Part shown: piece by piece, positions 3,059 to 18,406 of the stretch
Layout: the number at the start of each line of letters is the position of its first letter
Position numbering within the stretch: the first letter of the stretch is position 1
The notes under the pieces: generated by a model
Told to the model about the DNA's origin: nothing
The model's database searches: none
Seen by the model: the letters and a program-made list of their open reading frames with translations, nothing else
Position numbers and translations under genes: made by a program
DNA from: a virus
Lineage: Duplodnaviria > Caudoviricetes
Reading direction: 5' to 3' (one strand)
IMG/VR virus record: IMGVR_UViG_2974753081_000001
Location: 64,001 to 128,000 of that record
DNA length: 64,000 nucleotides

Positions 3059-4327
3059 ATGATGGAGCTGGAGAAGGCGACCCTGTCGCGCCTCACCTCC
3101 CCCGACGCGGTCCGGCAGTGCTGGGACCTCGGCCTGCGGGCCGACGTTTTCGAGGATCCGCACAACGCCCGCATCTACCAATTCGTCATCGACTACTGGC
3201 TCGACTCATCGATGCGCTCTGCGCCTACCGAGCGCGTCATCACCACCGAGTTCCCCGGCTTCGTCTCCGTCGACAACGACGAGTCGCTGACCTGGCTGGT
3301 GGGCAAGCTGCAGGACCGCTACCGGGCTAATCAGGTGCAGGAGGTCCTGCGCGCTGCTGCCCAGATGTCGGTCGAAGACCCCGAGGGCGCGCTCGCGGAG
3401 ATGTACAACAGCTCGCACCGCATCCGCGAGACCGTGCTCCCCCGGCAGGACCGGGTCGTCGTCCACGAGACCATCGAGTCCCGGCGCGATCGTTACCTGC
3501 AGCGCAGCCACGAGGTCATCGGCGGGGCAACGCTCGGGCTCCGCGAGGTCGACGAGCACACCGGAGGCGTCTTGCCAGGCGAGGTCGCCATCGTCGCGGC
3601 CTACACCAAGACCGGCAAGAGCTTCATGCTGGTGAACGCAGCAGTCGAGGCTGCCAAGCAGGGGTGGGTGCCCTACATCGCCACCCTGGAGCAGAACATC
3701 CCTGAGTTCGAGGACCGCATCGATGCGTTCTACTCCGGCGTCGGCTACGGCGATCTCACGCACGGCAGGCTGTCCCCGGAGGCGCTGCGGCAGCTGTACG
3801 AGGCTCAGGATCGGATGCGCGACGAGAACCACCTGATCCACCTGGAGCGTCCGGGGCGCGGAGATCGCACCGTGGTCAACCTGGTGAACCGGGCTCGGCA
3901 GGTCGGGGCCAACTACCTGGTCATCGACCAGTTGTCCTGGATGGACGCCAAGAGCCGACACCGCGACCGGCGGGACCGCTACGAGGAGCTGATCTACGAC
4001 CTGAAGGAGGAGGTATCGCGCGCGTCGGCGGGTGAGATTCCCTGTTTCATGGCCGTGCAGTACAACCGCCAGGCCGTCTCGACCAAGGGTGAGACTGGTG
4101 GGCTGCACAACATCGCGAACTCCGCCGACATCGAGCAGACCGTCGACATCGCCTACGGCCTGCACCGGACCGAGGAGATGCGCGCCAACAACGCGATGGT
4201 CCTGAAGACGCTGGGCTCCCGGCGTGGCGACATCCGCAACTGGCTGCTCGGCTGGTACCTGGACGAGGAGACCCGCATATTCGTCCGCGACGAGTTCGAC
4301 GGCGACGAGGGCGGGGGCGAGGAGTGA
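3059..4327 (+). CDS. dnaB: DnaB-like replicative helicase
   Basis: Walker A AAYTKTGKS, LVIDQL, AVQYNR, SADIEQTVD. Confidence 0.85.
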   Translation: MMELEKATLSRLTSPDAVRQCWDLGLRADVFEDPHNARIYQFVIDYWLDSSMRSAPTERVITTEFPGFVSVDNDESLTWLVGKLQDRYRANQVQEVLRAAAQMSVEDPEGALAEMYNSSHRIRETVLPRQDRVVVHETIESRRDRYLQRSHEVIGGATLGLREVDEHTGGVLPGEVAIVAAYTKTGKSFMLVNAAVEAAKQGWVPYIATLEQNIPEFEDRIDAFYSGVGYGDLTHGRLSPEALRQLYEAQDRMRDENHLIHLERPGRGDRTVVNLVNRARQVGANYLVIDQLSWMDAKSRHRDRRDRYEELIYDLKEEVSRASAGEIPCFMAVQYNRQAVSTKGETGGLHNIANSADIEQTVDIAYGLHRTEEMRANNAMVLKTLGSRRGDIRNWLLGWYLDEETRIFVRDEFDGDEGGGEE

Positions 4328-13201: not shown

Positions 13202-13914
13202 GGCACATCGGCGACATCGCAGACAAGGCCGGTCGCGAGCTGCAGGAGGAGCACGAGCGCATCGTCTCCGAGCGCCCGGTCCCGTTCGACGAGGACCCCA
13301 AGATCATGGAGAAGAAGGGGGTCGGGGTCTTCGGCAAGCTGAAGTTCGAGTGGCGCGACTCCGACCGGATGATCCTGGATCAGATTCGTGCTGCTGCCCA
13401 GCGCGCATTCATCGAGGGGTTCGGCGATTCGCTGCGCGTGCTCGACCGGCTCTACGAGGCCGTCCGGGTGCCGGAGGCCAACGAGCACGGCGTGGTGAAG
13501 GTCGACCAGGACGGGCGTCCGGTCTGGCAGACCGACTCCGACGGGCGGTACCTGGAGGACTGGGACAACCTCACCGGCCAGGACATCGAGCGGTGTCTGT
13601 TCGATCTCTCGCGCATCCGGCTCTACGTCGGTCCACAGGTCAACGAGTTGCTGATGGAGGCGATGTTCGCCAAGCGCATCCACCGCGACATCCACGACGA
13701 CGCCTACCTCGGCCCGGTCCAGGGCACCGTGGCCGACCGCACCGCCCAGGCGAATCGCAAGTCTCGACAGGACGACTACCAGGCGTTCTACCGGTACATG
13801 TTATGGTCGCAAGGAGATACGTTCCTGAAGGAACTCGGCAATATGCAGAGGACCTTGGAGCGTTTCCGCGAGTGGGGGATTCGAGGACAACAGGGGTATG
13901 GCAACAGAAGGTGA
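13198..13914 (+). CDS. Hypothetical protein
   Basis: ATGA coupling, phage codon bias. Confidence 0.75.
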   Translation: MRHIGDIADKAGRELQEEHERIVSERPVPFDEDPKIMEKKGVGVFGKLKFEWRDSDRMILDQIRAAAQRAFIEGFGDSLRVLDRLYEAVRVPEANEHGVVKVDQDGRPVWQTDSDGRYLEDWDNLTGQDIERCLFDLSRIRLYVGPQVNELLMEAMFAKRIHRDIHDDAYLGPVQGTVADRTAQANRKSRQDDYQAFYRYMLWSQGDTFLKELGNMQRTLERFREWGIRGQQGYGNRR

Positions 13915-14485
13915 TTGGACTCCTGTTCCGGGATTCCCTGGCTACGAGGCGTCGGCTGAACTAGGCCGGGTGCGGTCCCTGGATCGGTTAGATGCCAGAG
14001 GGCATCGCCGTAAAGGCGTGGTTTTGAAGGGCACTCAGCAGGTCCGAAAAGGGGCCGGTGGCCGTCTTCGCATGGGGCCGTTGATGGTCAGCTTGTCGAA
14101 GGACGGGAGGTCTCGGCCTTACTTGGTCCATCGAATTATTTTGCTGACTTTCGTTGGTCCGTGTCCTGAAGGTATGGAGGGGCTGCATCACAATGGTGAC
14201 GCCACGGACAATCGCCTGGTGAATCTGCGCTGGGGTACCTCGGTCGAGAACAAGGCCGATATGGTACGGCTCGGAGAGAATTTCAACGCCAACAAGGAGA
14301 GGTGTCCGCGAGGCCATCTTTTGCGCACTCCCAATCTGGTCCGTGGACCGGGAAGGGCTTGTCTGTCGTGTGCTCGCGCTCGGGCGTATCTTCACTACTA
14401 CCCTGAGAGGTCAGGGGATCTGCAGGCGGAGTCTGATCGTCGGTATGCGGAACTAGAACTGGAAGTGGGCGCTGATGAGCGATAG
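13898..14485 (+). CDS. NUMOD4-HNH homing endonuclease
   Basis: WTPVPGFPGYEAS..GRVRS (NUMOD4); VHRIILLTF..HHNGD..DN...NLRW; atypical codon usage. Confidence 0.9.
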   Translation: MATEGDWTPVPGFPGYEASAELGRVRSLDRLDARGHRRKGVVLKGTQQVRKGAGGRLRMGPLMVSLSKDGRSRPYLVHRIILLTFVGPCPEGMEGLHHNGDATDNRLVNLRWGTSVENKADMVRLGENFNANKERCPRGHLLRTPNLVRGPGRACLSCARARAYLHYYPERSGDLQAESDRRYAELELEVGADER

Positions 14486-16435: not shown

Positions 16436-17572
16436 TTGTCAGGACACATGAAGGTGGCCGACATCCAGCCGCTGCTGGAGCGCAACGAGCGCCACATCAC
16501 GGCTCGGTTGCACGACATCACGGTGGACGAGGGTGGCCGCGAGCTGCGGCTGGTGAGCGAGGACGGGACCGACGAGTCCTTCCCGCTCGACGAGGTGGCC
16601 GAGCGTCATCTCGGGCAGTACCTGGACGTCAGCCCGGTCTACCTGAAGAAGTGCCCGTCCACGCTGAAGGCCACCAACCTCAACTACTGGCTGCACCAAC
16701 AGGATCGCGAGCAGGGTGAGGCCACTCTCGTCGTCGGCCCGGACGGCATTGAGAACATCTACTCGCCGGACAAGACGGTCGTGGCCATCCCGCGCATCGC
16801 GGAGTTCATCCACCGCACGTTCAATGGCGAGGACGAGATCGTCAACCTGATCTCCGAGCCCGGTACGTTCCATGCCGACATCATGGTGAACTCGTCGCGC
16901 ATCGAGGTGCCCGGCAACGGTCTCGGCGACCGCCCGGACGAGACCGGGCGCATCACGCAGTTCGGCGCGGGCATCGATCCCCTGGACACCCCCGAGGAGC
17001 GCGAGCAGAAGCTGGCGCAGGCTCGGGCCACCCAGGTGTTCGACATCACCCACGGCGGCGTCCGGATCATCGCTGATCCCGGCAAGAGCAAGGCTCCGGT
17101 CGTCGAGCGGTACTTCAACCGGCTCATCTGCACCAACGGCATGACCATGCCGGTGCCGGATCACTCGATCACCGTGCGCGGCAAGACGGTCGATGAGGTC
17201 ATCCAGTCGATGGAGGAGGCGGCGGAGTTCCTGCTGGGGTCGATGGACGATGCCCTGGAGGAGTACAAGGCGCTGTCGGAGGTCATCGTGCCGGGCAACC
17301 CGCTGCTGTTCATCCAGCAGCTCGGTCGCGAGCAGGGGCTCCCCGATCGCATCATCCAGCAGGCGATGGACTACGCGGGCGGCGCGGGCTTCGGTCGCAC
17401 CGACAGGGACGTGACGTCGTTCGACGTGATGCAGATTTTCACCGGCCTGGCCAACCGCAGCGGCGTTCGGTACTCGACTCAGCGTCGGCTGCAGAACACC
17501 GCAGGTCTGTTCGTACATCGCGGAGACGACCTGCTGCATCGCTGCACTCAGTGCGAGCGCCCGCTGCTCTGA
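16436..17572 (+). CDS. DUF932-like protein (start TTG 16436 or ATG 16448)
   Basis: RLICTNGM motif; RBS AAGGAG; C-terminal CxxC. Confidence 0.65.
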   Translation: MSGHMKVADIQPLLERNERHITARLHDITVDEGGRELRLVSEDGTDESFPLDEVAERHLGQYLDVSPVYLKKCPSTLKATNLNYWLHQQDREQGEATLVVGPDGIENIYSPDKTVVAIPRIAEFIHRTFNGEDEIVNLISEPGTFHADIMVNSSRIEVPGNGLGDRPDETGRITQFGAGIDPLDTPEEREQKLAQARATQVFDITHGGVRIIADPGKSKAPVVERYFNRLICTNGMTMPVPDHSITVRGKTVDEVIQSMEEAAEFLLGSMDDALEEYKALSEVIVPGNPLLFIQQLGREQGLPDRIIQQAMDYAGGAGFGRTDRDVTSFDVMQIFTGLANRSGVRYSTQRRLQNTAGLFVHRGDDLLHRCTQCERPLL

Positions 17573-17591
17573 TCGGATTCCCCGGTCAGGT

Positions 17592-17619
17592 GTAACGATC
17601 TGGCCGGGGTAAGCGATAC
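17592..17619 (+). promoter_or_regulatory. SigD-like promoter GTAACG-N16-CGATAC upstream of tRNA cluster
   Basis: Member of 12-copy family. Confidence 0.7.
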
Positions 17620-17735
17620 TCCTACCGACCCAGTGACTACCGGCGACACCCTCCACCCAACACATGCCGTCGGACTCGCGGGTCCGAACAACTGAATAGC
17701 GGGGCGCGTTCCTTAGCCGGGGGCGCGTCCGCAAT

Positions 17736-17808
17736 GCCCTGCTAGCTCACCGGACAGAGCAGCCGTTTCCTAGGCGGCGGGTACCAGGTTCGATTCCTGG
17801 GTGGGGCA
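17736..17808 (+). tRNA. tRNA-Arg (anticodon CCT)
   Basis: Acceptor GCCCTGC/GTGGGGC, D-arm GCTC/GAGC, anticodon stem GCCGT/GCGGC with loop TT-CCT-AG, T-arm CCAGG-TTCGATT-CCTGG. Confidence 0.9.
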
Positions 17809-17809
17809 C

Positions 17810-17919
17810 GGGGCGGTATTGGAGGAGTCATGACCTTCGTTCCGCCAGGGGCGCTCGGACGCGGGCGTGGCAAAGGAAGGACGAAATCCCGACGAGGTGG
17901 TTCGAATCCACCAGCCCCA
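17810..17919 (+). ncRNA. Atypical tRNA-like RNA (~110 nt)
   Basis: GGGGC/GCCCC terminal stem, T-arm GGTGG-TTCGAAT-CCACC, long central stem, no canonical D or anticodon arm. Confidence 0.55.
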
Positions 17920-17968
17920 CGATGGCGAGCGAGGGCTCGTCACACTCCCCGACCAAAGGAAAAATCTC

Positions 17969-18406
17969 ATGGAGACCCGTACCCTGATCGAGCCGTCTGC
18001 TCAGGTCATCACCATCACCACCCTCAAGCCCGGCGACACCTACAAGCGCCTGGTGAAGAACTACTCCGACACCTACGACCTGCGCATCGGCGTGGTCACC
18101 GACGTGTTGAACAACGGCTCCGAGGCGGTCCTCACCGCGCTGGAGTTCTCTGGCAGCTACAGCACCGCCGAGGCCGAGCTGAAGGTGTTCGGCGGCGACA
18201 AGGACCTCGCGCTGTTCGCGACGACTCCCGAGGAGGTCGGGGTTTACCTCGATGACGTGAACGAGCGGGCTCACCAGATGGCGGAGTCCAAGCGGCGCGA
18301 GCTGGAGAAGGCCGAGGCCGTCGTGCGCGCGGTTGAGGACACCCTGGCGAGGGCACGCGGTGGTCAGCTGTCGGCTCCCGTGGTCGAGCGCCAGGTCGAG
18401 AGCTGA
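17969..18406 (+). CDS. Hypothetical protein
   Basis: CCCGACC + AAGGA RBS; start re-called. Confidence 0.75.
   Translation: METRTLIEPSAQVITITTLKPGDTYKRLVKNYSDTYDLRIGVVTDVLNNGSEAVLTALEFSGSYSTAEAELKVFGGDKDLALFATTPEEVGVYLDDVNERAHQMAESKRRELEKAEAVVRAVEDTLARARGGQLSAPVVERQVES

Follow-up and report, generated by a model that had tools for sequence, protein, structure and literature searches.

The window analysed here, a stretch of 64,000 nucleotides, covers positions 64001-128000 of a 136,319-bp virus record whose closest DNA relatives are Gordonia phages. ARAGORN called tRNA-Arg(CCU) as the sole tRNA in both the window and the whole genome, and Rfam returned no further match in the window at the gathering score. 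Immediately behind this gene, the initial annotation had placed a non-canonical tRNA mimic of about 110 nucleotides. The sequence quoted for 17810-17919, including the 5′ GGGGCGG at 17810, and a start two nucleotides past the tRNA-Arg discriminator (A17808 versus G17810) were both confirmed. The motif ACAACTGAATAG lies ahead of the RNA locus both in the window and in the phages Skog, Pupper and CherryTomatoes, and it may be a promoter or leader signal for the locus. The features of the region are collected in Table 1. When 17500-18200 was compared by blastn with 50,697 phage records, the match was limited to 17810-17922 (Skog, 83.5%, E=4e-23; Pupper and SCentae, 80.5%). A block of 110-113 nucleotides is kept in these three Gordonia phages while the flanks are unalignable, and the corresponding positions carry no annotation in any of them. 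The single-sequence fold energy of the element was unexceptional (z=-1.0) and the case for function therefore relies on the comparison with other sequences. It is conservation, and not fold energy, that indicates that the element is a conserved RNA gene and no product of chance.

Table 1. Features of the tRNA-Arg locus and the adjoining RNA element, in window coordinates
Feature	Position	Strand	Basis or remark
Motif ACAACTGAATAG, 12 nt	17688..17699	+	Once in the 136-kb genome
tRNA-Arg(CCU), canonical	17736..17809	+	ARAGORN; Rfam RF00005, 47.5 bits; discriminator A17808
Module 1, 5′ hairpin	17810..17847	+	RNAalifold consensus; constrained folds; same hairpin with other stems in more than 20 phage contigs
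Module 1, base helix GGCGG/CCGCC	17812-16 with 17842-46	+	RNAalifold
Module 1, inner stem GGAGG/CCUUC	17821-25 with 17834-38	+	RNAalifold
Module 1, loop AGUCAUGA (A-G-U-C-A-U-G-A)	17826-33	+	
Self-complementary loop core GUCAUGAC, 6-nt core UCAUGA	17827..17834	+	Proposed intermolecular kissing-loop site
Module 2, 72-nt tRNA-like body without anticodon arm	17848..17919	+	Segment table, five homologs
Module 2, acceptor 5′ strand GGGGC	17848..17852	+	Pairs with 17914-17918; segment table; RNAalifold
Module 2, D-like hairpin GCUCG-GACG-CGGGC	17853..17866	+	CGGACGCGGG block invariant in 5/5 homologs
Module 2, linker (GUGGCAAAG...) and weak 'hairpin C' version specific to the window	17867..17895	+	
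Module 2, T-arm GGUGG-UUCGAAU-CCACC	17896..17912	+	
Module 2, acceptor 3′ strand GCCCC and discriminator A17919	17914..17919	+	CCA not encoded, CGA next

The locus is syntenic with those of Pupper and CherryTomatoes, as judged from an HTH gene two genes downstream (58% identical), and its RNA content varies among the phages. The window holds tRNA-Arg and the element, Skog and Pupper hold a 116-nt 'tRNA-Ala with intron' and the element, and CherryTomatoes holds an 83-nt odd tRNA alone. CherryTomatoes, a close Pupper relative, lacks the element, which shows that at least one background can do without it. In Skog and Pupper, the RNA next to the element (L001, about 2867-2978, and L002, 2866-2978; annotated 'tRNA-Ala, joined' in Pupper) has a canonical tRNA body with an anticodon stem 4 bp longer, in which one compensatory change separates the two phages. 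The extended stem opens into about 37 nucleotides that form two hairpins with the palindromic loops GCGC and CUUGAUCA. This insert is not obviously a spliceable intron, and the RNA as a whole may represent another tRNA mimic that pairs with itself. CherryTomatoes carries, at the corresponding site (L068, 5152-5234), the 83-nt 'tRNA-Val(cac)', which looks like a deletion derivative of the Pupper RNA in which the strands of the extended stem were fused as GUGCGCAC. In Skog, about 430 nucleotides without an annotated gene (L001, 2432-2866) lie between gene 78 and the first odd tRNA; a long GC hairpin and the motif AACTGAATAG fall within them, the record skips gene number 79, and the interval may hold a further RNA structure. 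In the window, an ORF resembling HNH_3/NUMOD4 homing endonucleases by Pfam (13898-14485, plus strand) lies 3.3 kb upstream of the RNA locus.

Comparison among homologs indicates that the element consists of two modules. The first is a 5′ hairpin predicted by RNAalifold from the window, Skog and Pupper sequences. Full elements of the window type amount to three distinct sequences only, among which the base helix of the hairpin showed nil covariation. Two features of the initial annotation did not survive this comparison. The segment UAUUGGAGGA, described as an unpaired GG-containing loop in place of a D-stem, is in fact the 5′ strand of the conserved hairpin (its inner stem in Table 1), and the long-range stem UUCGUUC/GGACGAA occurs in the window only, has no counterpart in Skog or Pupper and clashes with the same hairpin. 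The most informative feature, a self-complementary hairpin loop common to many unrelated phages, had been overlooked. The computed self-duplex energy of AGUCAUGAC is -10.8 kcal/mol. A 6-nt direct repeat, GGGGCG, brackets module 1 (17810-17815 and 17848-17853); it could be the footprint of grafting the hairpin onto a tRNA-like body or the basis for two acceptor pairings.

The second module is the tRNA-like body, of which five homologs were compared: the window, Skog, Pupper and the metagenomic phage contigs L066 and L085 from IMG/VR, the last two carrying a homolog of the final 72 nucleotides alone (MAFFT misaligns L066). The order of segments is the same in all five: the acceptor 5′ strand is followed by the D-like hairpin, by a linker whose last letters are AAA(G), and then by hairpin C, a link of 2-6 nucleotides, the T-arm, the acceptor 3′ strand and a final A as discriminator. 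The perfect T-arm and the CGCUCG-GACG-CGGGCG hairpin reported earlier are both present in the window. Hairpin C comprises 7 bp and a loop of 4-5 nucleotides in Skog, Pupper, L066 and L085 and is weak in the window; its sequence differs at most positions across homologs and its pairing is kept. It is placed like a class-II variable arm, and the alignment to the tRNA-Sec model puts the variable arm at this site. The acceptor stems read GGGGC/GCCCC in the window and Skog, GGGGU/GCCCC in Pupper, GGGAGGC/GCCUCCC in L066 and GGGAGG/CCUCCC in L085, with compensatory changes at pairs 4 (G-C to A-U) and 5 (C-G to G-C). In the window, the stem has five clean pairs and a G.A mismatch.

The partner of the 3′ end probably differs from the one first proposed. 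The GCCCC-A terminus is present, and its 5′ partner is most likely the internal GGGGC at 17848-52 and not the terminal GGGGC at 17810-14. The internal strand is the only one available in L066 and L085, where it carries compensatory changes, which identifies it as the ancestral partner, and it is also the pairing chosen by RNAalifold. Constrained folds gave lower energies for the internal than for the 5′-terminal pairing in Skog (-52.3 versus -48.7 kcal/mol) and Pupper (-47.1 versus -43.9 kcal/mol), whereas the internal pairing was slightly disfavoured in the window (-43.5 versus -45.1 kcal/mol). In a possible two-state arrangement, the 5′-terminal GGGGCGG-UA could serve as an alternative acceptor stem, as in the group B RNAs described below.

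The loop of module 1 was followed across phages with two pattern scans. In scan 1, GGAGTCATGACC was sought 50-80 nucleotides upstream of GTTCGAATCC in IMG/VR, JGI metagenomes and GTDB genomes. The same loop was found in many unrelated phage contigs, GC-rich and AT-rich alike, always within or beside tRNA arrays, several of which also contained GOLLD and tmRNA genes. Its flanks were always complementary, with stem sequences differing between phages. In scan 2, restricted to IMG/VR, two loop positions were freed (GGAGU-N-AU-N′-ACC, 50-80 nucleotides upstream of a same-strand GTTCGAATCC T-loop). The sense orientation gave 23 hits at 22 loci, and N and N′ were self-complementary in 23/23 (C/G in 11, A/U in 9 and G/U in 3, the last class still self-pairing via G.U), while none of the ten non-self-complementary combinations was found in IMG/VR. 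The four hits in the opposite orientation to the T-loop carried GA, AT, AA and AA, a chance background. The loop signal is thus strand-specific; this speaks against both a DNA operator and a mobile DNA palindrome. From the matches of the metagenome and genome scans, four ordinary tRNA-Ser genes with an acceptor stem that reads GGAGUCA by chance (L026, L046, L047 and L049) and a coding hit (L048) were excluded, and a generic palindromic-loop scan over all loci was too noisy for use.

Loop changes at homologous hairpin positions followed the same rule. UCAUGA is replaced by UAAUUA and by CAUAUG, and in group B ACUAGU is replaced by GCUAGC. Several of these palindromic loops lie outside the search patterns, namely UAAUUA (first hairpin of group A), CAUAUG (L074) and ACUAGU/GCUAGC (group B), and so does a palindromic UGAUCA loop in the RNA neighbouring the element in Skog and Pupper. 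Taken together, these comparisons indicate that loop self-complementarity itself is under selection. As N and N′ are two bases apart, they are unable to pair within one chain, which suggests a loop-loop contact between two RNA copies, and the covariation points to module 1 being a DIS-type kissing hairpin. The loops of HIV-1 DIS, OLE L9.3 and GOLLD L21a have the same design, with 8-9 nucleotides and a 6-nt palindrome after purines (PMC12286853). Also as in module 1, the palindrome of OLE/GOLLD-type loops switches across homologs, supporting intermolecular pairing, and loop self-complementarity is maintained through sequence change in both. The same argument was made for the symmetric kissing loops OLE L9.3 and GOLLD L21a by Kretsch et al. 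and was confirmed by cryo-EM (PMC12286853). GOLLD and ROOL are, in addition, phage RNAs located beside tRNA islands. The contexts differ, in that the known loops belong to cage- or dimer-forming RNAs of 600-800 nucleotides or to viral genomes, whereas module 1 is a predicted hairpin of about 38 nucleotides on a 72-nt tRNA mimic. A different reading of the hairpin, as a mimic of the initiator tRNA anticodon arm (group A UCGGG..CAU..CCCGA), was rejected, given that homologous hairpins carry UAAUUA, UGAUUA or CAUAUG and not CAU.

The hairpin occurs in four further settings. In L014, L018, L020, L023 and L025 it lies in the 5′ leader of ordinary tRNAs; in group B (L017, L031 and L035), whose RNAs resemble tRNA-Tyr(GUA), it separates the acceptor strand from the D-arm; in L019 it occupies the anticodon loop of a tRNA-Gln-like RNA; and in group A (11 contigs) it stands ahead of anticodon-less tRNA-like RNAs with an extra outer helix. 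In the cultured cluster M mycobacteriophages Reindeer (L014, 4694-4705) and Bongo (L020, 8136-8147), it sits between tRNA-Ser and tRNA-Phe, in tRNA arrays that include GOLLD and a tmRNA as well. A further contig with both GOLLD and the hairpin is L015. The members of group A (L015, L016, L021, L022, L024, L027, L032, L037, L039, L041, L045, L071, L074 and L076) are RNAs of roughly 170-190 nucleotides from AT-rich freshwater and soil phages. They comprise an outer helix (AUAUGG/CCAUAU), two hairpins with self-complementary loops, an extended acceptor-like helix, a D-arm of normal form, a T-arm and, in place of an anticodon arm, a capped stem that varies and has no anticodon. Rfam has no family for them, their core being matched only by the tRNA model (38.8 bits). 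The group B RNAs (L017, 841-996; L031, 1155-1309, minus strand; L035, 1362-1516, minus strand) have an encoded ACCA end and an insert of about 75 nucleotides at the junction of acceptor strand and D-arm. This insert forms two kissing-type hairpins (AGUCAUGA; UACUAGU or UGCUAGC), and compensatory changes are seen in the acceptor and anticodon stems. The L017 RNA sits after two tRNA-Arg(CCU) genes, and L030 looks like a tRNA-His(GUG) version of this group. The tRNA-Gln(UUG)-like RNA of L019 (about 3791-3942), whose CCA is encoded, has the AGUCAUGA hairpin within the anticodon loop and a second insert of about 55 nucleotides, with a UUGAUCA-type palindrome, in its variable region. Blastn of the group A and group B RNAs against cultured phages gave no match. 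Two more patterns searched in IMG/VR returned Skog, Pupper and chance coding hits only (GCTCGGACGCGGGCGTGG), or 15 new loci that were all chance matches at gene starts on the other strand (GGGGCGGTA..AGTCATGAC).

The best explanation, favoured tentatively and judged just short of probable, is that the element is a two-module, non-decoding tRNA look-alike that pairs with itself and engages a factor that reads tRNA shape. The 110-nt RNA would probably be co-transcribed with tRNA-Arg from the conserved upstream leader and processed by tRNA maturation enzymes. Module 2 would take the shape of a tRNA's acceptor/T-arm half, supplemented by a small D-like hairpin and lacking an anticodon arm, and would offer a tRNA 'top half' with a free A73 to RNase P, the CCA-adding enzyme and possibly a synthetase or a tRNA-directed toxin. 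Judging from its segments, module 2 should be incapable of codon reading. The A-G-UCAUGA loop of module 1 would pair, as HIV-1 DIS does, with its own counterpart on another molecule, so that the precursor, or any RNA retaining the hairpin, would form a homodimer with two tRNA-like heads per particle. The most likely use would be that of a self-pairing mimic that binds or titrates a host or phage tRNA-shape factor, as a decoy or sponge. A decoy for factors that read the acceptor/T-arm half is a possible role, while a decoy against anticodon nucleases, suggested in the initial annotation along with a decoy for uncharged-tRNA sensors and an SmpB sponge, is unlikely from the sequence because the body lacks an anticodon arm. 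The picture of a dimeric mimic would fail if RNase P cut at 17847/17848, as this would part the hairpin from the body. Partner searches of the comparison records found no consistently co-occurring phage protein: peptidyl-tRNA hydrolase was absent, a CCA-adding enzyme was present in 1/5 records, and a 2H-phosphoesterase-like 'RNA ligase' was present in all records, including the phage without the element. A broader proposal, possible but one we lean against, is that the A-G-U-N-A-U-N′-A hairpin is a portable RNA-RNA docking module with which phages equip tRNAs as well as mimics of them. Dimers or multimers of tRNA-shaped units would result, acting as high-avidity decoys against oligomeric tRNA-directed host defences, such as acceptor-end nucleotidyltransferase or nuclease toxins, or representing small cousins of the GOLLD and ROOL assemblies.

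The presence of the hairpin merely in the 5′ leaders of ordinary tRNAs, as in the cluster M mycobacteriophages and several metagenomic phages, also suits a reading without any function in trans, in which hairpin and body are processing punctuation. They would be cis signals in the 5′ leader of the downstream operon, cut out by RNase P and RNase Z to set the 5′ end or the stability of the mRNA of the next gene. A same-strand ORF does begin close behind the element, 50 nucleotides downstream in the window and 23-27 nucleotides downstream in Skog and Pupper. However, the genes that follow the element in the window and in Pupper lack homology to each other, L066 and L085 retain the body in other contexts, and a cleavage signal would leave the selection for loop self-complementarity unexplained. 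The invariant D-like hairpin (CGGACGCGGG) suggests a specific partner instead, and we regard the punctuation reading as unlikely.

Another explanation, less probable again, is that the element is a chargeable tRNA without an anticodon, which a synthetase of the LeuRS or SerRS type, indifferent to the anticodon, would aminoacylate and which would serve as an off-ribosome amino-acid donor or sink. Charging is possible for minimal tRNA-Leu and tRNA-Ser substrates from which the anticodon arm is missing, the element would present a free acceptor end with A73, and hairpin C stands directly before the T-arm like a class-II variable arm. The only additional Rfam match in the window at E<=10 was tRNA-Sec (RF01852; 13.4 bits, E=8.4, below the gathering score of 47 and thus non-significant), in an alignment that matched the D-arm, the variable arm and the T-arm and deleted the anticodon arm. 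Yet the stack of acceptor stem and T-arm has 11 layers and not 12, it includes a mismatch, and the D-loop is the 4-nt GACG with no G18G19. tRNA-Sec itself has a 13-layer stack, a 6-bp D-stem with a 4-nt loop, a UCA anticodon and a long variable arm, so that the likeness is confined to D-arm geometry and the extra arm and the element falls outside this class. It also falls outside the canonical tRNAs (RF00005). A UUCGAAU T-loop arm stacked on an acceptor stem and a single-base discriminator are present (17896-17919), but an anticodon arm was found in 0/5 homologs. ARAGORN and Rfam left the element uncalled in the window, and the calls of ARAGORN in intron mode at a lowered threshold were mutually inconsistent (Leu, Ala and others) and were not used. 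The earlier description of a tRNA mimic rather than a tRNA was therefore upheld: acceptor stem, T-arm and discriminator are kept, the anticodon arm is absent, and the body is conserved and shows covariation.

That tRNA finders leave the element uncalled would also be expected if it had no function as RNA and were a decayed tRNA gene, an attP-type tRNA fragment or a DNA palindrome (an operator or a mobile hairpin), and the GGGGCG repeat around module 1 could be taken for a target duplication that arose when a hairpin was inserted. Such an origin is very unlikely. The helices show compensatory changes across five divergent contigs, on which grounds a pseudogene, a decayed tRNA and an attP fragment were rejected. 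The hairpin is asymmetric between strands (an extra 5′ A) and fixed in orientation to the T-arm, there is one copy per genome, and the loop is fixed while the stems vary, the opposite of what copies of a mobile repeat display.

The proposal of the initial annotation that the RNA mimics tmRNA in binding SmpB or in ribosome rescue is the least probable of all, since Rfam tmRNA, beta_tmRNA and permuted tmRNA models gave no window match even at E<=10 although they detect genuine phage tmRNAs in the comparison loci, pair 3-70 is G-C so that G3-U70 is absent, there is no P2 helix and no conserved resume codon, and no tag frame is conserved (the AUG frame spans 141 codons in the window; readings from the sequences of Skog and Pupper give about 14 and 30). 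Both RNAs have a GGGGC... 5′ end, a T-arm and an ...AGCCCC-A 3′ end (the element ends in ..CCACCAGCCCCA) and lack an anticodon, and E. coli tmRNA has the string CGGACGCGGG just ahead of its T-arm. In the element, CGGACGCGGG forms its own hairpin and not a T-stem. The likeness to the tRNA-like domain of tmRNA noted earlier is superficial only, with a D-like hairpin replacing the D-loop and P2 helix of tmRNA; the element has no mRNA-like part, and 110 nucleotides leave no space for pseudoknots. On the silence of the covariance models, the missing G3-U70 and the lack of a conserved frame, tmRNA identity was rejected.

YrlA RNAs (RF02553), found in actinobacteria and their phages, are like the element in being non-decoding mimics of tRNA D-arm, T-arm and acceptor stem (PMC4201824). 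In the actinobacterium M. smegmatis, RNase P cleaves the tRNA-like domain of YrlA, whose acceptor stem has 7 bp, and CCA is added to it (PMC4201824), a precedent in favour of comparable processing of module 2. YrlA is defined by a helix that binds Ro60, the motif GNCGAAN0-1G and a Ro60 gene close by; all three are missing from the element. Ro60/TROVE (PF05731) was absent from its own genome, Skog, Pupper and three further records, and the window had no RF02553 match. An identity as YrlA or Y RNA was rejected on these six records, the covariance model and the missing motifs of PMC4201824.

The closest described relatives are rnaC and rnaD of phage T4 (species 1 and 2), small stable RNAs of 139 and 119 nucleotides that are encoded, like the element, directly behind tRNA-Arg within a phage tRNA cluster. 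Their biological roles are unexplained (PMC3014915). T4 rnaC has a T-arm (CCGGG-UUCGAAU-CCCGG), an acceptor-like end and extra hairpins. The element fits this description as a non-tRNA RNA gene at a tRNA cluster with a T-arm and an acceptor end, which defines a descriptive class and not a sequence family. There is no sequence similarity by eye, the architecture of the body differs, and the T4 RNAs lack the GACG D-like hairpin. In addition, rnaC has two mutually complementary loops (read from its sequence), suggesting an intramolecular kiss, in contrast to the self-complementary loop of the element. In kind, the element belongs with the phage tRNA-cluster stable RNAs and tRNA mimics. In Rfam 15 and a limited literature search, we found no description of the kissing-hairpin module, its loop sequence or phage tRNA-like kissing-loop RNAs, nor of the 72-nt body with the GACG D-like hairpin.

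That the tRNA clusters of phages contain stable RNAs without an explanation, T4 species 1 and 2 among them, has been recognised since the 1970s, and more recently the giant self-assembling RNAs GOLLD and ROOL were found to adjoin such clusters. The element joins both themes on a small scale, with a 72-nt tRNA mimic and a 38-nt hairpin under clear selection for self-pairing. Skog, Pupper and the mycobacteriophages of cluster M are available in culture and open to genetic manipulation. If the pairing is true, a compact natural dimerisation module has been identified, and the element would provide a simple model for phage RNA-RNA assemblies around tRNA genes. If the hairpin is indeed a docking module, phage tRNA mimics that assemble themselves would form a class that is both new and widespread.
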